64,000 nt of DNA. Source: Somniosus microcephalus (Eukaryota). Made by a program: the position numbers and the translations under genes. Of the stretch, positions 3,751 through 53,737 are shown one piece after another; within the stretch, counting starts at the first letter, position 1; each line of letters begins with the position of its first letter. The stretch is taken from assembly GCA_052327205.1 (NCBI GenBank), contig CM126230.1, forward strand, positions 29,326,001-29,390,000, read 5' to 3'. The notes beneath the pieces were generated by a model that made no database searches, was not told the origin of the DNA, and saw only the letters and a list, made by a program, of their open reading frames with translations.

Positions 3751-4055
3751 TGTGGCGGAGACCACATAGGGACAATAACACAATATATAGCCAATGTTGT
3801 TATATGTACCTAAACACAATTCACTATGTATAGCAATGTTGTTATATGTACGTACTGGGTTGGGTTATCGGTGCAGGGTCCCTTTAAGAGTGTCGGTAGC
3901 GTGATGACGTCATGACGTCGGTTGCGTGATGACGTCATAGCCCCTGCAACGGGGCTGAGACCTTCAGTCCTGGTGGAGAGTGAATAAAGTAAGACACATT
4001 TTGCCTTTGCTGCAACAAAAGTCTCAGAGCCTGTTGATTTCTATCGACCCCAACA
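3751..4055 (+). repeat. 5' LTR (305 bp) of CsRn1-clade element
   Basis: Direct repeat of 7875-8162; AATAAA at 3983-3988; TGACGTCA at 3905 and 3930. Confidence 0.95.
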
Positions 4056-4056
4056 T

Positions 4057-4067
4057 TGGTGACCCCG
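4057..4067 (+). promoter_or_regulatory. Primer-binding site, tRNA-Trp
   Basis: TGGTGACCCCG 1 nt after the LTR, complementary to the tRNA-Trp 3' end ...CGGGGTCACCA (tRNA sequence from memory). Confidence 0.85.
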
Positions 4068-4103
4068 CTGCTCTTTTGGACGATTCCAAAGACCTCATCC
4101 GAA

Positions 4104-7100
4104 ATGGCGACGAACGCCGTTTCCATCAAATTACCCAAGTTTTGGGAACAACAGGCTGTCGCTTGGTTCGCCCAGGCCGAGACTCAATTTGCACTCCGGG
4201 ACATCACCGCGGACGACACGAGGTACTACTACGTCGTCTCTGCTCTCGGCAGCTCCACCGCGGCCAGAGTCATGAGCCTGCTCGAGAACCCCCAAGAGCT
4301 CAACAAATATGAAACGCTGAAAACGCACCTCTTAGAGACTTTCGGACTCACCGAAGCCAAGCGCGCACGCCGGCTTCTCTCTCTACCCGGGCTTGGCGAC
4401 TCCAAGCCCTCGGAGCTGATGGACCACATGCTGGCCCTCCTGGGCACACACAGGCCGTGCTTCCTCTTCAAGGAACTGTTCCTTCAACAGCTGCCAGGTC
4501 AGGTATGGTCGGCTTTAGCCAACTCTTCCACTACCGATTTCCACGACCTGGCCAAGGAGGCCGACAAATTTTTCTCCGCCGGGCAACAGTACTGCGCGGC
4601 CACACGGAGCCCTGCCCCCACCGATACAGCCCAACGGCGGCAGCCCCCAAGCCTCTGCTTCTACCACGCGCAGTTCGGCCCCAAAGCCAGGAAGTGCCGG
4701 CCCCCGTGCAGTTTTCCCGCATCAAAACAAACGAAAGACCACTCGTCGGCTGCTATGGCTGTCGGCCGTTCAGGCAGTTTGTTATTTATTACAGACACCG
4801 ACTCCAGACGTCATTTTCTTTGCGACACGGGTGCCCAGGTAAGCGTCCTGCCCGCGTCAACCATAGACATTCAAGGGGGGAAACCACGGCCCCGTCCTCG
4901 AAGCCGCCAACGGCAGTTCCATCCGCACCTTCGGGAAACGGAACGTGGCGCTTTTTTGTTTTGGCGGGCAGCGGTTCACCTGGGACTTCGTCACGGCAAA
5001 AGTGTCCACCCCCCTTCTCGGCGCTGACTTCCTCTGTGCCAATGGCCTTTTGGTGGACGTCAAGAACTGACGTCTCATCAATGCTGAGACTTTCAGCTCG
5101 CTCCCGTGTTCCCTCAGCAGGTCCTGCACGACGCACTTGTCCAGCGCACTCTCGACCTCCGACGAGTTTTCCCGCCTCCTCGCCGAGTTCCCGGACCTCA
5201 TGAAGCCCACATTTTCGTCCGCCGCCACCAAACACGGGGTAGAACACCACATCTCGACCACCGGTCCACCCGTCTACGCCCGCGCTCGGCGCCTCGACCC
5301 GAGGAAACTCTCCATCGCTAAAGCCGAGTTCGACACCAAGGAGCGCCTCGGCATCATCCACTGGTTGAACAGTCCGTGGGCATCGCCCCGAAACCAGGCG
5401 GCGGGTGGTGCCCGTGCGGCGATTACCGGCGCCTCAATGACACGACGACCCCCGACCGCTACCCGATTCCACACATCCAGGACTTTTCCACCCGCCTGGC
5501 CGGGAAAGTGGAATTATTGAAAGTGGACCTCGTCCGGGGTTTCCACCAGGTCCCTGTCCGACCGCAGGATGTCCCGAAAACCGCGGTGATCACCCCGTTC
5601 GGGCTGTTCGAATTCCTCCGCATGCCATTTGGCCTCAAAAATGCCGCCCAGGCTTTTCAACACCTAATGGACGCCATGTTACAGGACCTGACATTCCTGT
5701 TCGTATACCTGGACGACATCCTCATCGCCAGCACCTCCAGGACGGAGCATGTGTCCCACCTCCAGACTCTCTTCGAATGCCTCAGCCAGCATGGCCTAAT
5801 CGTCAACCCGGCCAAGTGCCAGTTCGGGCTGTCCTCGATCGATTTTCTCGGGCACTGCATCACGAAGGACAGGGCAGTGCCACTGCCATCGAAAGTGGAG
5901 GTCGTGATGGACTTCCCGCGACCCCTCACCGTGAAGGCCCTGCAGGAGTTTTTGGGCATGGTGAACTTTTACCGTCGCTTCGTCCCCCGAGCAGCCCAGC
6001 TTATGCGGCCCCTTTATGAGGCCCTCAAAGGCAAGCCCGACAAGCTCACCGTCGACTGGTCCGAGGAGATGGCCAATTCTTTCACGGACACGAAAAGGGC
6101 CCTGGTTAATGCGACAATGCTGGCGCATCCGTTACCTGATGCGCCGATCACTCTCACCACCGATGCCTTGGACTATGCGGTCGGCGCTGTCCACAAACAG
6201 TGGGTCAATGGCACCTAGCAGCCGCTCGCCGCCTTCAGCCGGCAGCTCTGCCCCAACGAGCGGAAGTACAGCACCTTCAATCGCGAGCTTCTCGGCCTCT
6301 ACCTCGCCGTCCGACACTTCTGTTTCCTGCTGGAGGCCCGCCCGTTCATGGCGTTCGTGGACCGCAAGCCGTTGACCTTCGCCATGGCCAAAGCTTCCGA
6401 GCCGTGGTCGGCCCGTCAGCAACGCCAGCTGGCCTTCATCTCAGAGTTTACAACAGACATCCAGCATGTGACTGGGAAAGACAACCCCGTCGCAGACTGT
6501 CTCTCCCGAGCCGTCGCCAGCGCCGTGCACCTCGGCATCGACTACACCCGCATGGCGGTCGACCAGGCCTCCGACCCGGACGTCCAGGCCTACAGGACGG
6601 CGGTCACGGGCCTTCAACTAGCGGACGTCGCGTTCGACGATGCCGGCACCACACTCCTGTGCGACGTCTCCGTTGGGCAGCCACGTCCCGTTGTGCCCGA
6701 CGGGTGGAGACGGCAAGTTTTCGACGCCGTCCATAATCTTTCCCACCCGGGCAGGAAGTCGTCACAGAAGCTGGTGGCGGCTAAGTTCGTCTGGCACGGG
6801 CTTAGGAAAGACATTCGCGACTGGGCCAGCACCTGCGTGGTATGCCAACGCTCGATAGTGCATTGCCATACTTTCGCGGTGCCCGAGAGGCGGTTCGACC
6901 ATGTTAACGTAGACCTGGTGGGGCCCCTGCTGCCCTCCCGCGGGTTCACCCACCTCCTCACAATGGTCGACAGAACCACCCGATGGCCGGAAGCCGTCCC
7001 GCTGTCTTCACCGACGGCCGCCGATGTGGCTCGGGCGTTCATCAACACTTGGGTCGCCCGGTTCGGCGCCCCATCTGACGTCTCCTCCGACCGGGGCCCC

Positions 7101-7937
7101 CAGTTCACGTCAGAGCTCTGGAACACTGTCGCCCGAGGCCTCGGGTTGAGACTCCACCGCACCACAGCATACCACCCTCAGGCTAACGGACTGTGCGAAC
7201 GGTTTCATCGCTCCATGAAGGCCACGCTCCGGGCCAGCCTCCGGGATGACAGCTGGATCGACAGACTCCCATGGGTTATGCTGGGACTCAGGACCGCTCC
7301 CAAGGAGGACCTCCAGTCCTCGTCCGCCGAACTCGTCTACGGACAGCCGCTGCGGGTTCCCGGGGATTTTGTCCCCAACGCAACGGAACCTTGGTCCGCA
7401 GCCCGTCAGTGGTCCGACCTTCTGGACAATGCCAAGGTTTTCGCACCGGCGTCCACATCGCAGCACGGCCTCCCGCAGTCCCACGTTCTGCTCGCCCTTC
7501 GTGCGGCGGAGCACGTTTTCGTCCGCCATGACGCCCACCGGGGACCTCTTCAGCCACCCTACGATGGACCATTCCGCGTCCTGGAAACCGGGGACAAGAC
7601 CTTCGTAGTGGATGTCGGCGGTAAGCCGGACTGCATTTCCGTGGACCGTCTTAAGCCGGCCCACCTGGATCTGGACCGACCCATTGAGTTGGCACAGCCC
7701 CCGAGGCGGGGCCGACCTCCGGTTTCCGCACCCTCAGTCCGCCACCGAGCACCCGAGGTCCCTCCGATGAACCCCCGCAGTCCCCGCCCCGGAATCGAGG
7801 AGCTGTTCCGACCGTGTGATCCGGCCCCCCCAACGACTGACATTGCCAGTGCTAGTGAATTCTGGGGGGACGTATGTGGCGGAGACCACATAGGGACAAT
7901 AACACAATGTATAGCCAATGTTGTTATATGTACCTAA
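4104..7937 (+). pseudogene. gag-pol of CsRn1-clade element with frameshifts and stops
   Basis: Gag AVSIKLPKFW...CFYHAQFGPKARKCRPPC; protease FLCDTGAQVS; RT YLDD; RNase H TTDALDYAVG; integrase HNLSHPG..CVVC, DDE core, PPYDGPF. Frameshifts near 4880 and 5385; stops at 5068-5070 and 6216-6218. Confidence 0.9.
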
Positions 7938-8162
7938 ATACAATTCACTATGAGTAGCAATGTTGTTATCTGTACATACTGGGTTGGGTTATCGGTGCAG
8001 GGTTCCTTTAAGAGCGTTGATAGCGTGATGATGTGATGACGTCATAGCCCCTGCAACGGGGCTGAGACCTTCAGTCCTCGTGGAGAGAGAATAAAGTAAG
8101 ACACGTTTTGCCTTTGCTGCAACAAAAGTCTCAGAGCCTGTTGATTTCTATCGACCCCAACA
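7875..8162 (+). repeat. 3' LTR (288 bp) of CsRn1-clade element
   Basis: Matches 5' LTR with about 13-14 substitutions and a 17-bp indel (counted by eye); preceded by G-rich tract 7864-7870. Confidence 0.95.
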
Positions 8163-31478: not shown

Positions 31479-32163
31479 TATGTTTGACAACTCTCCAGGA
31501 TTGTCCTGGAGTCTCCCGGAATGAAAGATTAATCTCCAGGACACTGCTACGGGCAACCCGTATTCATTTTCTGTGAACATTTATTAGTTATAAAAAGGCT
31601 GTTTGACTGACGGTCAAGCATCATCCAATTAAGAGCCTGTTTGCTTTCCAATTGCCAAGGGAAAGCGGAGTGCGCGAGGATGGATGGGTTGGGAGACCCG
31701 GGTTGGGAGACTGATGTTGGGAGACCCCAGGGTTGGGAGACCCCAGGGTTGGGAGACCAGGGTTGGGAGACCCCAGGGTTGGGACATCAGAGTTGGGAGA
31801 CCCCAGGGTTGGGAGACCCCAGGGTTGGGAGACCAATGTTGGGAGACCAGGGTTGGGAGACTGATGTTGGGAGACCCCAGGGTTGGGAGACTAATGTTGG
31901 GAGACCCCAGGGTTGGGAGACCCATGTTGGGAGACCCCAGGGTTGGGAGATCAATGTTGGGAGACCTCAGGGTTGGGAGACCCCAGGGTTGGGAGATCGA
32001 TGTTGGGAGACCCCAGGGTTGGGAGATCGATGTTGGGAGACCCCAGGGTTGGGACACCAGGGTTGGGAGACCGATGGCGGGAACGTGTGGGCGGAGCAGT
32101 TGGCGGCAGGAGGTTGTGAGAGGAAACCTCCAGGAATGTGTCCAACAAGAGTTGGCAGCCCTA
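31479..32163. mobile_element. hAT-type MITE containing an expanded minisatellite
   Basis: 8-bp TSD ATAGTGAC/ATAGTGAG; ends TATGTTTGACAAC / GTTGGCAGCCCTA; homologous to 19596-19871. Confidence 0.8.
31686..32072 (+). repeat. G-rich minisatellite, 14-16-bp units GGGTTGGGAGACC(CC)A / TGTTGGGAGA
   Basis: Roughly 25 tandem units read directly. Confidence 0.95.
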
Positions 32164-33323
32164 ATAGTGAGGGAAGTTGTGATGGCCGTTTTGGACTACA
32201 GGTACCATCCAGCGTGGCTGGATACAGGGGAATGACCAGAACATGTGTTATACACATGTTAAAGCACATTGTCCATATGCATAATTCACTATTTCACCAC
32301 GTTTTTCTCCATGATTACTTCAATACTGAATTGGACCCTGAAAATTGGACATTAGGGAACCTGGGAGTAAATTAGCATCTTTGGCCTGATGGTCCTTGTG
32401 ATTCTCATGAATTATAATCAATCATACTTGTAAAAGCACTCCCATCACAAACTCTCAAACTACCAGCACAGTGACATTGTATGATTCATTACTGCGATTA
32501 AAAAGTCTGCCAGTTCCTTTCTTTTTCATCCAAAATTCATTTTTGCATCACTAATTTGCGAAGGATTTTATACAAAATGTAACCATATGTCCAATATCAA
32601 AATGTGTAAAGCTGCCAGAGAGAGGCATGGTGAGGTAAATACAAGTAAATGGATGGGAATGTTACCATAACTTGATTGGAGAATGACAGGGTTCAGTTAC
32701 TTCAGCACAGCAATCCAGAAAATTACTTTTACTTTTTGAAAATGCACAGCTAAAAGGCAAAACAACACCAGTAAACTGTTGGAAAACACGTTTGGGCTAC
32801 AGCGCCTTCAAAGGGAAGTACCAGATGCCAGAAATGTTGCATTTAATACATAGAAGGTAGCTCCTCTCGATATTTCCGAATACTAATTCAGCTGTTACAG
32901 TTAATCTACATTGTTTTTCTCTAGCTTACAGCAGCCATTTTCTGTTGGGAGAGATCAGTTTGTCACCATGTGGCAATGCCATGGCCACGTGAAACTCGAA
33001 ATGCTGACTAAGGCGGTCTTTTTTAAAGTTTCTTTGGAAAACTTAATCAAATCTAGGTTATGCGAAAGGCTCATTGAGTAAAAGCACCACCTAGTCTGGT
33101 AGTGAGCCAAATAGGCTCAGATGGTCCTATACTGCGCTCTGATTTCTGCAAGGACATGGTGGGCTGCAGCATTTGGAGAGGGGGAAAAATCAATTGAGGT
33201 TCCCACTCCTGATCACCATCCTGAAATTGTGCATGTGTGGAGATCAAATAAGGCTTAGCTTTTATGGTGCCCACATTCAAATAGCCTGTTGTTCACCTGA
33301 AGAGGGGCCATTTGGAGAGGATT

Positions 33324-47270: not shown

Positions 47271-50036
47271 TACATTTGTACAGGCACCAAGGGCTCTTTA
47301 GTATCTTGACCATTGGCAATCCATCCGGTTTGAGCTCGACAGTGAATGTTGCTCTGCTGATCAACTGCAGTGGGCATCATGGCCAAGCCTCATCCTAAAA
47401 TGATCTGAGTTCCCTGGCATAGGTCGCTGGATTGAAATTGGGATCCTGGCTGAATTCTTTTTATCCCCCCGCCACTTTCCTATCCCAAGACTCTGAAGCA
47501 CTTCTACCGCCAGGTCAACGCAGACTAGCAATTGACCCCATGACCTTTGTGGCCTGACCAGTGCCATATCACACAGGGTGGTGATTTTACCAAGAGAGCA
47601 ATCGGGGAAGCCATTTCCACCATTGTAACCAAAGCTAGATGTATTCCTTTGTTTACGCACCACTATTGTACTGTAAATGGGTTTCTGTGGAAAGTAAGCC
47701 TTAAAATGTTACCATATGCTTGTATTATATGAATTTTTCTTTGCAGTACTTCGCAGTAGCTTTATAACTGTTCAATAAAGGCCGTTTGCTTTGAAGAGTA
47801 TATAAACGAGATTGGATTTCTGCCTTATTTCCTGTCGACAGTGCTGTGTGGAAATTCTTCCACAAAATCCTACAGGGCATCAAAGACAGGAATAAGGTGG
47901 AAACACAATCCATTGTGTGCCTCGAGAAGTTCACCTTCCGTACATGTCCAGTTCACTTTCAGTACACGCACGGGTCACCTTCAGTACACATACATTATAG
48001 CTAGCGCGCACAAAAATACACTGGGCAAAGTTGGGGTGGGGGAGGGGCGCGGGTGGCGGTGTGGAATGTTTTCCTGGGTGTGAAAGATTCATAACCGCTG
48101 AATAATAAAGTCCATCCACCATTTCCAGCCCAGTCTGATGCTGCTTCTGTCTTTCTGTTTGTCTCCTTTTAAGAAGCCAATTGTTTGAAATGTTGCACAG
48201 TGCGAGGTAAACTTTACTGGCCCGCTCCTCTGTCTACAGGCCACTGCTCTGAGTGTTAATAACGAGCTCACAGACACCCACAAACAGACCTTATTATTTT
48301 TTCACAGGCACAATTGTTTCACTTTCAATGCAACAAAATAACATTCTGCTGTTGAGAAATTGTTACAAGTAGAAAGTTGAATTTGGACTGTCTGTTAATT
48401 GCGAAAGCGTGGAATTGTATTTGAAAGCTGAGATAACGATTTATTACTACAGAAGGATCAATTGCCTCAAATTATAGAACAACTGGACTAAAACAGCACA
48501 ATATGGTCATTGTACAGTGTGAAGTAAATAACAATAGCATCTCTACATACTGCCGTAGGATCTTCAATTCAGAGAGCTCACGAGGCGAACAAACACCTAT
48601 GCTTATCACCCGTTGTGGAAAATTACTAGCAGTTAGGAGTTTTCATAGGCACAGTGCTGAACATGCCCCCGGGCAGTGTTGCTTCACTGATGGAGATGCA
48701 TCTACTGCAGCATAGTGCATGTTGCGCCGTGTTTAACATTAAACTGGCCTGGAGCTCTATTTCAGTTTGTCTTGAGTTTAAATGCAAACACTGAAAAGCT
48801 TGCTGGAAACAATGACATTTATTCACATTATCAGTCGCCACGAGGGTCTTTGAGGGAGACTGTTATTTCTTCCGCGTATACAGGAAGCAACTGCCCCCTG
48901 GAGGTGAAGGTTGCTTATAATGAAGAGCGTGTGATTGTGGCTGTGCTCTGACAATGTCCAGTTATGGATTATCTGAAGCTGGCTTTGTTACAGGATCAGC
49001 GCTGTTCAAAACTTGGCTCCATGCACTGGCAGTTCTATGATGATTTAACTTAAATATACTAGTTAGGAGTAAAATAAACCTTGTGTGGTCTTCGTGGCTG
49101 TCTTACATCAATAATTATCTCCTGAAAGTCAAGATTACGATGCGTTAAAATATATATAGAGAGAGAGAGAGACAAAGTGGTTATACACAGCAAGCTAAAC
49201 TAGTGCTGCAATATAGTGATGATTCAGTAACTTGTATTACAAACGGAAAAAGCGACAAGACATATCAATATAAATAAACTACCCTGAAAATCTGCCAGAT
49301 TATAAAAACACAGGATTAAGTAGACTTGGTTTAACAAGTCACTGTTGCATTGTATATGTTATGAACAATGTCATGTGCATATCCAGGCTCCAATCTATGT
49401 TTTTCCTTACAACCCACACACATCACTTTTGAAAAACCAGGAAATTAATACTCATTTTACAGACCATTCACATTTCAGCTTGTCCTGCAATACATCCAAA
49501 TCTAATAAAAACAGTGATATAATAGTCCACCGTGTGTTTGATGGAAAGTAAACCTTTATTCTTTGCAGGAGGTTCAAACATCTGTTCAGCTCCAGAAGAA
49601 TTAAAAGTGAGGTTTATCTCTTTATTTTAGGTAGAATACAATTGCAAATATTTAGACCGGTTTCACTTAAAAGAAAAAAAACTGTCTCCATCATTTTCCT
49701 TTCTGAGATTAACAGCACAATTAACAGCTCAGTTATAAATCCTGTAATGCTTTCAAACCGTTTCGACTGCCAAACACCTCTTAAATAGCTACTAAAAATG
49801 AGACACTAACAGGACATGATCTCCAACTACACTATCCCCCAGAAGTCAATAAATGTCCACACTGCGTTCCACTTTAATCCCCATTACAGTCCATGGGCTT
49901 AGTTCTATCCAAGAATTTAAGTTATTGTGTATAAATTTAACACTATTTGATTTTCCTAATTATATTTTGAGTGTACCTGATTAATGTAAACTTAACTCAT
50001 ATACAACATGTACAGTGTGTGTGTGTAAGTAAGGAG

Positions 50037-50293
50037 TGTTGTGTATGTAATATGTGTGCTACTTTGAACCTATGGACAGGACTGCACTACTTGTTGGGCG
50101 TAGTGATACGCAGTACCACTCCTGGCCATAGGGGTATAAATAGTACTGTGGGTACTGATCTCCCCTCAGTTCCCGCCTGTGGGCATGAAGTAAAGACCTA
50201 TGTATAGTCCCTACCTCTAACCAGTAAAGACCTGTTTTATTGTTACTGATTAAGTCTGAGTATTAATTACTTGAACAACTCACAGATTTAACA
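50037..50293 (+). repeat. 5' LTR
   Basis: Identical to 53366-53622; TATAAATA 50135-50142; AGTAAA at 50189 and 50223. Confidence 0.95.
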
Positions 50294-50294
50294 C

Positions 50295-50304
50295 TGGCGA
50301 CGAG
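50295..50304 (+). promoter_or_regulatory. Primer-binding site, tRNA-Ser
   Basis: TGGCGACGAG, complementary to the tRNA-Ser(GCT) 3' end ...CTCGTCGCCA (from memory); typical of Mag elements. Confidence 0.85.
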
Positions 50305-50856
50305 TCTGATTCGGACCCTGCGGCAGTCACTCCACGGCAGCTTCGTCCACAGCCAGGACGTTGCAGAGAGGTTTCCACCCTCTCCACCCCACTGGAAGAC
50401 ATCCTGACCTCGGAGCCTCCATCGGCGACCGTCAGCTTCTTCTCCAGCTTGGTGGTGGGTAAGCCGTTGTCTGAGCCGGGCAGCGACGCGACAGGCAGTC
50501 GACCGCGTTGGCCGCACGAACGGGGCTGGGGGAGCTGGAGGAATAGGGCGCGAGAGCCGCTTCGAGCGGGAGGCGTTTCAACAGAGCGATCGCATCTCCT
50601 GATAAGAGCCGAGAGCCGCTTCGCGATCCAGCGATCGCATCCGCTGATAAGGGCCGCACTCGGGCGATCGCAGCGAAGATAAGGGCCGCACTCGGGGGCT
50701 GAAGGGAGACGGCGTTGGGGGACGGGTGAAGACCGCCAAGCGCGGGAAAACCGCCATTTTGTGGGCGGAGGACGACGGCAAGAGCGGGAAGCCGCCATCT
50801 TGGATAGCAGTAAAAAAAATAAAATCTGAGAAATTGCAAATCTGATAAGTACTACA

Positions 50857-53049
50857 ATGCCTAAACACGGGAATATTAGCAACTTTGATAGTGACATCGA
50901 AGATTGGGCCATATATGTTGAACGAGTTAAAAATTATTGTAAGGCCAATAAAATTCATGAGGCTGATAAAGCACTAACATTATTAAATTTAATGGGTGCG
51001 AAGACATACGGGCAATTGAAACACCTGTTATCACCAGATGAACCGGCGGATAAGACGTTCGATGAGATTGTTACTGTCCTGAAAGATCATCTAAACCCCA
51101 CGCCGCTGATGCTAGCGGAACGATTTAAATTTTACGACAGAAGGCAGCTACAGCATGAAAGCAATGCTGATTATTTGCTGGAATTGCGTAAATTAGCGAA
51201 ATATTGCCAGTTTGGAACGGGACTGACAGAGGCACTTCGAGACAAATTTGTGTGTGGTTTATTTAAACAGGATACACAAAAGCGACTGCTCGAGGAGAAT
51301 GAGCTGACGCTTGAGAAGGCGGTCACTATGGCAGCAGCACACGAAGCCGCAGCGAGAGGCACGGCAGTAATGCAGCTACGGTCACCGGAGCTCAGTGCAC
51401 ACAAATTGGGTGTGAGTTCTGGCAAATGTTATCGTTGTGGAAAGACAACGCATGATCAGAACCAGTGTTGGGTTAAAAACCAAGAATGTAGAACTTGTGG
51501 TAGGCTTGGACATATAGCTAGAGTATGCAGGTCAGCGAAGAAGACCAGCAACAAGAAGTCACCGCAAGGAAAATACGCAAAGGTACACAAGGTGACCGAA
51601 CAGGAGTCCGATTCAGACGCTAGCAGTAATGAACTGGCTAGCTTAAGAGTACTCAACGCTGGTAAGGGTGCAGACCGCCAGACAATTTGGGTCACTCTTC
51701 AGATAGAAGGAGTCCAAGTAAAACTGGAATTGGACACTGGATCGGCATTGACGGTCATAAATAAGAAAGATTACGGAAAGTTATTCCAACATATTCCCCT
51801 ACAGGATACGGGGATTATATTGGAAACATACACGGGGCAAAGAGTGTACCCCATCGGGAAAATAGAGGTTGCAGTGGTCCACAAGGGCGAAGACAGTCAA
51901 ATAATGGACTTATATGTGATATCTGAAGGAGGTCCTCCACTACTAGGACGGGAGTGGATTAGGAAAATGAATATGGACTGGCATTTCCTACAAACAATAA
52001 CGAGTGAGAACTCGGTGAAGATAGTCGGCCCAGACTCTGGAACGGATGATGGTAAGCCCAACTCAGGTGCAAAAGACAAAGTTTCAGCACAGAATTCCAC
52101 TGAGCAACAACAACATAGTTTAACTGTGGATTCTGAGTCTGGCAAGTCTACTGATGTGCCCATTTCTGAGGGACACCGGGCTCGAACTCAACTCCATTTC
52201 AAACTACAACAGCAATTAGAACAAATGCTTCGCCGTTGTGAGCAAGAGTTGAATGCAACGAAAGAGTTCTTTGATATAGAGTTGGAGAATCTGGAAAGAC
52301 AACAGAAGCAGCTGATGGAGAAAATGGAGCAGGAGCACACAAAACGTCTGATGTCAGAGGAGTTAACGGTCAGCCAACTCCTGCATATGCTGAAGGACAG
52401 GACTCTGAAATGGGAAAAACTTGAACACGAACTTCAATATTCAAAGGAAAGGGGTTCGGAGCTATCAAAGGTTATTGGAAGAGCTGAGGTGGCAACACAG
52501 ACTGAGATGACTGCAACAGAGCAGCCCTTGGATGCCAAAAGTACGCTGACTCACGTCAACGTAGAACAACAGACCGCTGAAACAGCTGCTCCGGTAGAGG
52601 GATTGAATAGTCCGATCAATCAATCTCCAAAAGAAGTTGAAGTAGTAAAATCTCAAATGAGGTCATTAGTAAACGACTTGCTGAAAGCCCAGAAAAAGCT
52701 GGATGAAGAGGTACGCATGAAGAAGTCTCTTCAGGAAAGATGTCTGGACTTGGAACAAAAGCTGGCTAACGCCCAGCTGGGTATGGAGGAAATAGAAGAC
52801 CCTCTCGCTGGCCTAGATCAGGACGACACCGAATATTACTATGTCCTGTCCTGCCCAACTTGTAACTTCGACTCCCACCATACAGAAATCATGGAGGAGC
52901 ACCGAAAGTCTACGGAACATCGGGAGAAGGTGGCTCTACTACGGAAAAAGGAGGGAGAGAAGGAGGAACTGCGCATGCAGCTGGCAGCTGACAGTGGAGC
53001 CCAGAGAGTCTCCAAGAAGCAGAAAAGGAAAAGTCGAAACAGAAGATGA
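50857..53049 (+). CDS. 730-aa Gag-protease fused to STK10/SLK-like and optineurin-like coiled coils, a U1-type zinc finger and a basic tail
   Basis: Mag Gag ([19 protein letters not shown]), two CCHC knuckles 51427-51528, protease DTG 51733-51741 and LLGREW; host-like segments 52168-52350 and 52357-52764; CxxC-x12-H-x5-H 52852-52920. Confidence 0.92.
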
Positions 53050-53352
53050 CCCATCTGAACCATTATTACCTCTACCAGATCACACACGTGGTCCCTCCGA
53101 ACGGAGCCAATTCAGTTCGGAAGTTCAAACTGTTAAATCCATGGAAGGACTATTGAATGAGTCACTCCAGCAACGTGAACCGACTCCACCACAGAGATTG
53201 AATCTGTGAACTGTTTTCCGCAGAGACTGAATCTGTGATCTGTTTTGACATGAAGTTATCTATGTATCTATGTTATTCTGTTATGTAAACCTGAAGTTAT
53301 ATATGTATATATGTTATTACGTTATGTTAAATGGGGAGATGACTGTAAAGCT

Positions 53353-53365
53353 AGGAAGGGAGGAA
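53353..53365 (+). promoter_or_regulatory. Polypurine tract
   Basis: AGGAAGGGAGGAA abutting the 3' LTR. Confidence 0.9.
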
Positions 53366-53622
53366 TGTTGTGTATGTAATATGTGTGCTACTTTGAACCT
53401 ATGGACAGGACTGCACTACTTGTTGGGCGTAGTGATACGCAGTACCACTCCTGGCCATAGGGGTATAAATAGTACTGTGGGTACTGATCTCCCCTCAGTT
53501 CCCGCCTGTGGGCATGAAGTAAAGACCTATGTATAGTCCCTACCTCTAACCAGTAAAGACCTGTTTTATTGTTACTGATTAAGTCTGAGTATTAATTACT
53601 TGAACAACTCACAGATTTAACA
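53366..53622 (+). repeat. 3' LTR
   Basis: Identical to 50037-50293. Confidence 0.95.
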
Positions 53623-53737
53623 AGGAGATGGGGCAAAATTAGTATATGTTAATACTATCTAGGAGGCCTGTTTGCTTAAATCCAAATAGAGGTTTTTACT
53701 TTCAAGCCTTGATGAATTGCAGCATTTTTTAAATCCA

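Follow-up and report, generated by a model that had tools for sequence, protein, structure and literature searches.

A multi-copy, non-autonomous Ty3/Gypsy element of Somniosus microcephalus with spliced STK10 and optineurin sequence in place of pol, and its probable origin by copying of a circular RNA

Results

Architecture of the element

The DNA that was analysed, referred to here as the window, is a stretch of 64,000 nucleotides from Somniosus microcephalus (contig CM126230.1, positions 29,326,001 to 29,390,000 of the forward strand) and contains an LTR retrotransposon whose features are listed in Table 1. An earlier note, made from the sequence alone, had described identical LTRs, a perfect target-site duplication (TSD), an intact primer-binding site (PBS) and polypurine tract (PPT), and an unbroken 730-aa ORF with Gag and protease. 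All of these were confirmed: the LTRs differ at 0 positions, the TSD is the same on both sides, and the ORF has two CCHC knuckles and a DTG motif, its aa 1–388 being 45–48% identical to the Gag-protease portion of full-length Gag-Pol proteins, with weak Pfam matches to the knuckles and protease (E 0.002–0.02). The TG...CA LTRs, PBS, PPT, 5-bp TSD and matching LTR ends were found in all eight full elements; the PBS presumably corresponds to tRNA-Ser. The statement that non-retroelement protein occupies the position of reverse transcriptase (RT) also held, in that the 730-aa ORF gave no Pfam match to RT or integrase at E≤1 and that STK10 and optineurin (OPTN) sequence lies there. No env gene, nor room for one, was found in the window element or in three autonomous relatives.

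Table 1. Features of the element and their positions in the window
Feature	Position	Strand	Remark
5' TSD, AGGAG	50032..50036	+	Flank sequence
5' LTR, 257 bp, TG...CA	50037..50293	+	Identical to 3' LTR
PBS, TGGCGACGAG	50295..50304	+	Common to autonomous, founder and long relatives
Single ORF, Gag-protease-host cargo, 730 aa	50857..53049	+	ORF translation
Gag, two CCHC knuckles (aa 191–204, 211–224)	50857..51678	+	Omega 0.18, aa 1–230 vs autonomous copy L038
Aspartic protease, DTG at aa 293	51679..52002	+	3' end is the junction of Gag-protease recombined onto cargo
STK10 exon B, 3' part, two pieces flanking a 69-nt deletion	52002..52172	+	Putative circle entry side; 86–88% to host exon
STK10 exons D and E (joined by splicing) with PKK coiled coil; preceded by a 414-nt deletion	52168..52350	+	91–93% to host exons
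OPTN, parts of four spliced exons; 21-nt deletion near 52531	52342..52793	+	Replaces back-splice junction
STK10 exon A, short piece (MEEIED)	52783..52800	+	Sequence comparison
240-nt insertion with a matrin/U1-like finger motif (Cx2Cx12Hx5H) and a basic tail	52801..53040	+	Downstream frame shifted
STK10, remainder of exon A and 5' part of exon B, beyond the stop	53041..53161	+	Putative circle exit side
Integrase C-terminal tail, remnant of parent pol	53162..53197	+	Sequence comparison
PPT, directly 5' of 3' LTR	53354..53365	+	Sequence
3' LTR, 257 bp	53366..53622	+	0 differences to 5' LTR
3' TSD, AGGAG	53623..53627	+	Flank sequence

Composition of the cargo

Behind the protease the ORF continues into cargo consisting of spliced shark STK10 (aa 383–496), OPTN (aa 497–642) and a zinc-finger-like tail. 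Pfam placed a PKK domain (PF12474) at aa 450–500 (E 5e-8). In a protein database the best match to aa 380–730 was shark optineurin (72% over 43% of the query, E 2e-51) and shark STK10 matched at 77–80% (E 9e-18), while a PDB sequence search with aa 379–730 gave 0 matches at E≤1. The host-derived, mosaic character claimed for the cargo was borne out in the host genome, where its spliced exons find their partners: the exon B pieces match G000:C8:167,196,962–167,196,723, three OPTN exons match at 87–93% on G000:C17, and a fourth, with the deletion, at 80%; the host OPTN exons show two single-base insertions in the assembly. The resemblances to STK10 and optineurin recognised earlier are thus both real by Pfam and best match, but they are not two consecutive segments, as three non-contiguous STK10 pieces lie 5' of OPTN and two more 3' of it. 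Because exon A and the 5' part of exon B lead the host gene yet end the cargo, the permutation can be read from the window's copy alone.

The last ~80 aa derive from neither STK10 nor OPTN. A search of 1.84 billion representatives for the donor of this 240-nt insertion gave no close match and four weak ones (best E 6e-8, a repeat protein). Another copy, L035, has captured a KMT2A-like piece in frame, and the DNA likeness of that piece to the start of the insertion (DTEYYY) was not significant (P=0.32). The spacing of the motif fits a matrin/U1-type C2H2 finger, with a Pfam E of 0.06 and an Atlas value of 0.93 to zf-met clusters at low recognition; a single-sequence model of the tail gave a helix alone, and the finger ligands are intact in 29 of 30 copies. 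It had been claimed that the frame stays open across several junctions. The 730-aa ORF is indeed unbroken, but the 3' junction of the 240-nt insertion is out of frame, so that the frame was not kept at every junction; the host-coding junctions ahead of the finger are in frame in six cases out of six (null 0.42–0.65 per junction, P 0.005–0.075).

No STK10 kinase domain was seen in any cargo, and no intronless copy of OPTN aa 438–611, the ubiquitin-binding region, was found among the 150 of 239 candidates that were scored, the three matches all being host exons. The FVEI motif of OPTN, which we take to have an LC3-binding role, is carried by the long subfamily described below and is lost in the window's subfamily, in which the protease-RT linker, a possible location of a cleavage site, is deleted as well.

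Autonomous parent and copy numbers

Counts in the genome, which come from exact patterns and partial sets of matches and are lower bounds, gave at least 7,719 exact matches running from the linker into RT, as in the autonomous Gypsy parent, and at least 713 running from the linker into STK10 (controls 0). The parent copy L037 has the Ty3/Gypsy domain order, with protease at 284–374, RVT_1 at 489–644, RNase H at 707–838 and integrase at 948–1108. It is 60% identical to a Mag-like 'K02A2.6-like' Gag-Pol and has two CCHC knuckles in a single frame; these last features are suggestive of the Mag clade, to which the family may belong.

The window element is without RT, RNase H and integrase, its cis signals are intact and its copies are many and dispersed. 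Of 622 first-look candidates, 40 matches were scored and all 40 were ≥99% identical over the cargo, which upholds the earlier view of a multi-copy non-autonomous family; the 23,836 first-look candidates obtained for OPTN are not a copy number. An autonomous partner had also been predicted, and a relative that agrees with the element in PBS, termini and TSD length was found, but none of the three sampled has the window's own LTR (best Gag-protease match among them 88%). Because the LTRs are identical and RT and integrase are absent, mobilisation would have occurred in trans, and on this basis the element almost certainly depends on an autonomous helper for both enzymes.

Founder copies and the permuted STK10 insert

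A founder subfamily carries 1,245 nt of STK10, its exons in permuted order, where RT-RNaseH-IN should lie. Copies L039 and L040 read B(3' part)-C-D-E|A-B(5' part), are 97.5–100% identical to five host exons and have no introns, and the length from entry to exit, 1,245 nt, equals the sum of the five exon lengths. The E|A junction joins exactly the host donor GAG|gt to the acceptor cag|CAC; it was exact in 20/20 founder copies examined, made up of these two and 18 further copies, all 18 of which had the same exit as well. The donor pattern has one match genome-wide and the acceptor one match at the host locus (three in all). Entry and exit lie at one host site, by microhomology: no exact match between the L037 ORF and STK10 exon B is longer than the 12-nt one at entry, in the protease-RT linker, and the parent pol matches the same site over 6–8 nt in its integrase tail. 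The cargo has no poly(A) tail, consists exclusively of the exons of the putative circle and ends in the integrase tail. Of 576 sites, just four show a difference from today's host exons that the founder copies share, one of them of pol origin, which identifies the current single-copy STK10 gene as the donor.

Over the four capture junctions of STK10 and OPTN the microsimilarity is 12, 6–8, 9 and about 7 nt, with the host sequence in sense and its introns lost. The OPTN piece starts 8 nt inside an acceptor and stops about 4 nt before a donor (chance about 0.01–0.02). In the window's copy the back-splice junction has been overwritten by OPTN and the permuted order alone remains. Neither a repeated STK10 exon (4 kb on each side of the host locus, one assembly) nor an inverted repeat between the introns flanking the putative circle (4 kb × 4 kb) was found.

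Subfamily history, selection and transcription

The subfamilies form a series from founder to long to short, the last being the window's, and each younger subfamily has less cargo. Between the window and long copies dS is 0.8–1.1 in Gag-protease and 0.18–0.24 in the cargo; in a tree the short clade groups with the autonomous copy L038 (100/100) and the long and founder copies with L037. The short copies (n=30) are the best-scoring of 622 candidates, and of the 29 with Gag in view (L005 excluded) 22 are fully open, one stops at codon 727 and six are broken, while singleton changes look neutral. With such breakage and such singletons, open frames in young copies were rejected as evidence of selection.

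Omega was estimated with a codon model that includes kappa, in place of NG86. The Gag that the family was said to retain is strongly conserved (Table 1); for the protease, compared with the closest of the autonomous copies sampled, omega was 0.76. For the cargo, omega was 0.57 against the host (grid interval 0.35–0.9, LRT p=0.039, or 0.087 with CpG codons left out) and 0.74 against the long copy L033 (p=0.27, not significant); against the host it was below 1 in 10 of 11 copies tested, which are non-independent, and significantly so in three. Synonymous changes in the cargo were in excess (26 observed, 15.4 expected, P=0.002), replacements were no more conservative than random (BLOSUM P=0.53), and the retention of 245 codons without a stop after 78 substitutions (P=0.08) is weak taken alone. 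As regards the suggestion that a frame kept open hints at selection, the cargo is only weakly constrained with respect to the host, the comparison with L033 is not significant and the cargo is shrinking.

Transcription of the family, for which a check had been proposed, is indicated by depth in 30/30 bins in two RNA runs (short reads, family level), at about 240–260 reads per kb per million, with a sense bias in one of the two; this evidence consists of raw reads aligned to the element, which may carry another organism label than the window.

Discussion

From the founder copies we conclude that the STK10 cargo very probably arose from a circular RNA, the unit-length permuted insert being most likely one full turn of what was a circle. 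The OPTN capture may represent a second such case. The account that we propose as a whole, and consider probable, is of a Gag-coding non-autonomous Ty3/Gypsy family generated when RT switched templates to a host circular RNA packaged alongside the element RNA. The parent pol carries two short matches to STK10 exon B. During minus-strand synthesis RT would have quit the element RNA at the integrase tail for a five-exon STK10 circle, copied it for one round across the back-splice junction until the template ended at its own RNase H cut, and re-annealed at the protease-RT linker, leaving RT-RNaseH-IN deleted and 1,245 nt (415 codons) inserted in frame. Descendants gained six spliced OPTN exons at microhomologies of 7–9 nt, and in-frame deletions, a swap to a different Gag-protease/LTR lineage and a zinc-finger-like insert led to the window's subfamily. 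The element's own Gag would package its RNA, with RT and integrase borrowed from the abundant autonomous family.

The least certain part of this account concerns the cargo protein. We lean towards the reading that it is mostly a passenger, with selection for an open frame that has a basic tail at its end, whose benefit may lie in RNA stability or in a particle or nuclear-import function, above any STK10 or OPTN activity; the open frame looks to be favoured more than the cargo content. A doubtful alternative, with the same origin and along the lines of the earlier note, is that the cargo protein itself is selected, either as a protease-released STK10/OPTN coiled-coil decoy or scaffold directed against autophagy or innate sensing, or for particle assembly. 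The omega values below 1 against the host, the uninterrupted 245 codons, the recurrent in-frame captures, including that of L035, the kept finger ligands, the FVEI motif of the long subfamily and the level of transcription are all in keeping with such selection, and the synonymous excess is larger than a pure passenger predicts. Against it are the loss of cargo with each younger subfamily, the loss of FVEI and of the linker with its possible cleavage site in the window's subfamily, the lack of kinase and ubiquitin-binding domains in any cargo, the BLOSUM result and the omega against L033. The earlier note's analogy with an oncogene-transducing retrovirus found no support, on much the same points: because the cargo is weakly constrained, shrinking and without kinase and ubiquitin-binding domains, an oncogene-like effector reading is unsupported, FVEI being lost and the replacements non-conservative.

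It is unlikely that the permuted STK10 came from a linear RNA instead, through trans-splicing or exon repetition or from a tandem duplication of exons A–E absent from the assembly. Such an RNA would carry an identical E|A junction, microhomology of pol at two places to a single host site would be enough for a unit-length insert, and no intronic inverted repeat was found that might mark a circle. However, no duplicated exon was seen at the host locus, the four shared differences point to the current single-copy gene, the OPTN borders near an acceptor and a donor suggest a near-full turn of a second circle, and circular RNAs are far commoner than exon repeats. An assembly chimera, or a single dead insertion without consequence, can be dismissed in view of the hundreds of dispersed copies with separate TSDs and of coverage of the element by reads or contigs that belong to other runs and carry other organism labels; a contig from organism D spans the STK10/OPTN junction with one difference.

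Under the circular-RNA account, the donor exons, the parent element, both switch points and the unit-length insert all occur in one genome and offer a concrete, testable mechanism, template switching with a single turn limited by RNase H, for the previously open reverse-transcription route of circular RNAs. It would imply that circular RNAs enter retrotransposon particles in the germ line, and the series from founder to short copies would represent exon shuffling within a replicating element. More tentatively, this Gypsy lineage may routinely copy co-packaged circular RNAs once round, with a host-derived Gag extension now useful to the element and new multi-gene proteins built from circular RNAs, tried out and swapped between capsid lineages. 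In shark genomes, copies of OPTN or STK10 that lack introns can be selfish cargo and not host duplications, and transcripts of the element may mimic back-splice reads in circular RNA surveys.

LTR gene capture and circular RNA pseudogenes are already known; in the literature, mostly its non-subscription part, we found neither this family, nor the in-frame capture of a circular RNA by a mobile LTR family or a mobile family displaying the mechanism, nor a paper on circSTK10. Mag-like 'K02A2.6-like' elements share the single gag-pol frame, two CCHC knuckles and 45–48% Gag-protease identity, whereas the cargo-bearing shark copies have host sequence for RT, RNase H and integrase. In acutely transforming defective retroviruses, which are helper-dependent, spliced host sequence has been captured in place of pol and reads on in frame from Gag; the shark element is in contrast a Gypsy element without env, and its captured pieces lack catalytic and signalling domains. 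A shark preprint (10.1101/2024.09.09.611499) describes, in the available text, intronless copies of OPTN that have LINEs or LTRs within 1 kb but counts them as host gene duplications, with no circular RNA or Gag fusion and with 0 mentions of STK10 in its main text. Maize Bs1, likewise a non-autonomous LTR element, unites pieces from three host genes in a transcribed chimeric ORF (review PMC13317346), but it is from a plant and a circular template is not reported in the available passages of the review, whereas the present family is vertebrate, Gag-selected and amplifying. LTR-mediated retroposition (Tan et al., 2016; PMC5131818), as set out in the available part of that paper, similarly leaves host sequence, already spliced, flanked by parts of an LTR element that are not contiguous, with microsimilarity at the switch points, several parent genes in one copy, and the insert in sense and often in frame; those are individual retrocopies, whereas the shark family has hundreds of members, a stepwise series and a Gag swap, and 'circ' has 0 occurrences in the paper's main text. 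The closest likeness in template is to circular RNA-derived pseudogenes, which in the available passages of Dong et al. (2016; PMC4897178) also have a non-colinear junction at splice sites, no poly(A) and multiple copies, and include 33 high-confidence mouse circRFWD2 copies with LTR sequence enriched in their flanks, the mechanism being said to remain mysterious. Unlike those pseudogenes, the putative circle described here measures exactly one turn and continues the Gag-protease frame of an LTR element that is intact; its switch points and parent family are present, and it would have founded mobile subfamilies.

Structure of the element and its family

The earlier note had described, in one element of the window, identical LTRs, a TSD, a PBS and a purine tract around an unbroken ORF with Gag and protease and without RT, and all of these were found on analysis.

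Features of the window, with positions on the forward strand
Feature	Position	Description
Whole element	50037-53622	two LTRs, 257 bp each, identical
TSD		AGGAG, 5 bp, flanking the element
PBS and purine tract	within 50037-53622	both present
ORF, 730 aa	50857-53049	single reading frame
Second Gypsy element	3751-8162	unrelated, frame-broken; LTR-like repeats 93-98%; RT, RNase H and integrase matches
Repetitive open frames	31611-32372	both strands; probably a tandem array

Over its first 388 aa the ORF shares 45-48% identity with Gag-Pol proteins in the database, within their Gag-protease part, and a family profile search of the 730 aa gave no RT or integrase family at E<=1. The remainder, the cargo, matches PKK in a profile search (E 5e-8) and, in a protein database search, shark optineurin (OPTN; E 2e-51) and shark STK10 (E 9e-18), the two likenesses named in the earlier note; no chimeric protein was present among the best 120 of 237 database matches. 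Homology thus identifies the host as a shark.

The suggested check of copy number revealed a multi-copy family, as all 40 cargo DNA matches scored, out of 622 candidates, reached at least 99%. Two copies of this short subfamily (G000:C5:158,673,724-158,681,429) lie in tandem with one LTR in common. An OPTN search revealed longer relatives, and the five examined (long copies, L031-L035) have ORFs of 915-1,033 aa comprising Gag-protease-linker, STK10, OPTN, a second STK10 stretch and an integrase tail. The linker runs into STK10 in 713 exact pattern matches and into RT in 7,719; three of the latter copies were examined and are Gypsy elements of 5.2-5.3 kb that encode protease-RT-RNase H-integrase, and in one of them the frame is unbroken. 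In eight full elements, drawn from all classes, the TSD is 5 bp long, the PBS is nearly identical and the LTR ends match.

A permuted STK10 insert in the founder copies

STK10 is circularly permuted in the long copies, which predicts an ancestor with a back-splice junction. When the STK10 part absent from both subfamilies was used as query (150 of 191 candidates scored; host exons on contig C8 also matched), 75 of 98 matches were near full-length and intronless. Two such founder copies (L039 and L040; 3.9 kb, LTRs 98.3-98.7%) carry STK10 as their only cargo, in the order B(3' part)-C-D-E/A-B(5' part), with 97.5-100% identity to the host exons. The five exons, presumably human exons 8-12, sum to 135+675+131+124+180 = 1,245 nt, which is divisible by three and equals the founder entry-to-exit distance. 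Exon E ends at its own GT donor and exon A begins at its own AG acceptor, which sits 6.5 kb upstream of that donor in the host gene. The E/A junction and an identical exit recurred in 18 of 18 further copies drawn from the STK10 search (12 top-ranked, 6 lower), giving 20 of 20 with L039 and L040. Entry lies at 12 nt that are identical in the pol linker and exon B, with no longer identity between that ORF and the exon, and exit at a 6-8-nt identity between integrase tail and the same host site in exon B. Across 576 nt, just 4 differences from the host are common to the 20 copies, one of them supplied by pol, so that capture was recent compared with the divergence of the host. In the genome the donor pattern matches once and the acceptor pattern three times, at the host locus and at two further sites taken for mutated copies. 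The host locus has no repeated STK10 exon within 4 kb. Against a circle, no inverted repeat was found between the introns flanking exons A and E (4 kb). In host STK10 (L042, L067) a GC donor apparently closes exon C, and the exon following E, about 3 kb downstream, is skipped in some shark isoforms.

Later edits

In the long copies 414 nt of STK10 are gone and six OPTN exons, spliced together, have come in; outside a 21-nt deletion these are 94-99% identical to host exons in L031-L033. A 9-nt microhomology, 8 nt inside an acceptor, marks the start of the OPTN piece, which stops about 4 nt short of a donor and takes the place of the STK10 back-splice junction; its limits fit a near-complete turn of a second putative circle with no surviving junction (chance about 0.01-0.02). 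The host OPTN exons (L046:4456-4595 and 5145-5340; G000:C17) contain two single-base insertions, judged against three aligned element copies and the shark orthologue reading frame, so that either the assembly is in error here, where hundreds of element copies have the same exons, or the host gene is broken. One long copy (L034) has regained, in frame, a longer integrase-tail stretch from an autonomous relative. Another (L035:2236-2730; G000:C682) carries an additional KMT2A/MLL1-like piece (65% to a coelacanth protein of that name), inserted in frame between protease and STK10, preceded by a Cys/His motif and including QVDGADD, which we take to be a taspase-1 site.

The short subfamily has four more deletions (93, 69, 318 and 159 nt), of which the 159-nt one also occurs in L033 and L035. 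It has, too, a zinc-finger-like insertion of 240 nt that shifts the reading frame, which places the STK10 of the exit side and the integrase tail downstream of the stop. Between short and long copies dS is 0.8-1.1 in Gag-protease and 0.18-0.24 in the cargo, and the short subfamily clusters with a different autonomous copy (tree of 14 rows, all kept); the cargo was therefore recombined onto another Gag lineage. All three subfamilies have a basic C-terminal tail, each derived from different sequence.

Expression

Runs with four organism labels contain near-identical DNA, at shares of 0.47-0.78 in 12 of them and of 0.04 in one more run of organism D. RNA reads at least 93% alike numbered 13,138 of 16.7 million and 12,432 of 14.4 million in two runs of organism B, and all 30 bins of the element had depth in both. 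In run X23 the first mate was mostly minus strand, i.e. sense RNA under the usual stranded protocol, and X24 was mixed. Bins of the 240-nt insertion, which is absent from the host genes and older subfamilies examined, reached 430-460x in X23. This is evidence for transcription at the family level, and the RNA source may differ from the species of the window. Reads leave the element at window 52360, 52745 and 52843 for other sequence (70-101 each), so more cargo variants exist than those examined. At window 51983, 103 and 157 reads resembling the window protease run into an autonomous-type linker, a hint that some autonomous lineage closer than those three sampled copies is transcribed.

Selection

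Against the autonomous copy L038, omega was 0.18 for Gag (p 5e-11) and 0.76, not significant, for protease. The proposed dN/dS comparison of cargo with host exons (245 codons, 75 differing, 26 of them synonymous) gave omega 0.57 (p=0.039, grid interval 0.35-0.9), but p=0.087 without CpG codons, and neither the STK10 nor the OPTN part was significant alone. Omega was below 1 in 10 of 11 copies tested, which share history, and significantly so in three. Simulation with the observed spectrum predicted 15.4 synonymous codons against the 26 observed (P=0.002), and 2.4 stops where the cargo has none (P 0.08). That excess leaves room for a protein role, yet selection on the cargo as protein is unlikely, as it is shrinking, lacks active domains and changes non-conservatively (no conservative bias of replacements, P=0.53). 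For these reasons we think it more likely that selection acts on the openness of the frame and its basic C-terminus than on STK10 or OPTN activity. Frame was kept at all six host-coding junctions ahead of the 240-nt insertion (P 0.005-0.075; microhomologies between these coding sequences fall in frame 42-65% of the time by chance). Open frames among young copies agree with neutral decay. Long and founder copies came from protein searches, which are biased towards open frames.

Proposed mechanism and comparison with known systems

The donor exons, permuted unit-length insert, switch-point homologies, parent family and order of later edits can be read from the sequences themselves. From established retroviral biology, we suggest that a putative STK10 circle was co-packaged with element RNA, that RT would have switched template during minus-strand synthesis, and that RNase H would cut the circle behind it, stopping copying after one turn. 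RT and integrase would be borrowed from a helper. The reason for the open frame is the least certain point.

The analogy with an oncogene-transducing retrovirus is rejected as an identity, since the cargo lacks active domains. We found no prior account of the family in the open literature. A shark genome preprint counts OPTN copies of a single exon, located near LINEs or LTRs, among retrogenes, and its available portions describe them without STK10, Gag fusion or circles (10.1101/2024.09.09.611499). The observation is real, and the family is a variant on known kinds. To judge from the available portions of the sources, the element works in like manner to LTR-mediated retroposition (PMC5131818) and to Bs1 (via PMC13317346), and the family displays the sequence hallmarks used for a circRNA-derived retrocopy (PMC4897178), the circle itself being putative. 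With this family the mechanism of circRNA retrotransposition can be tested directly.
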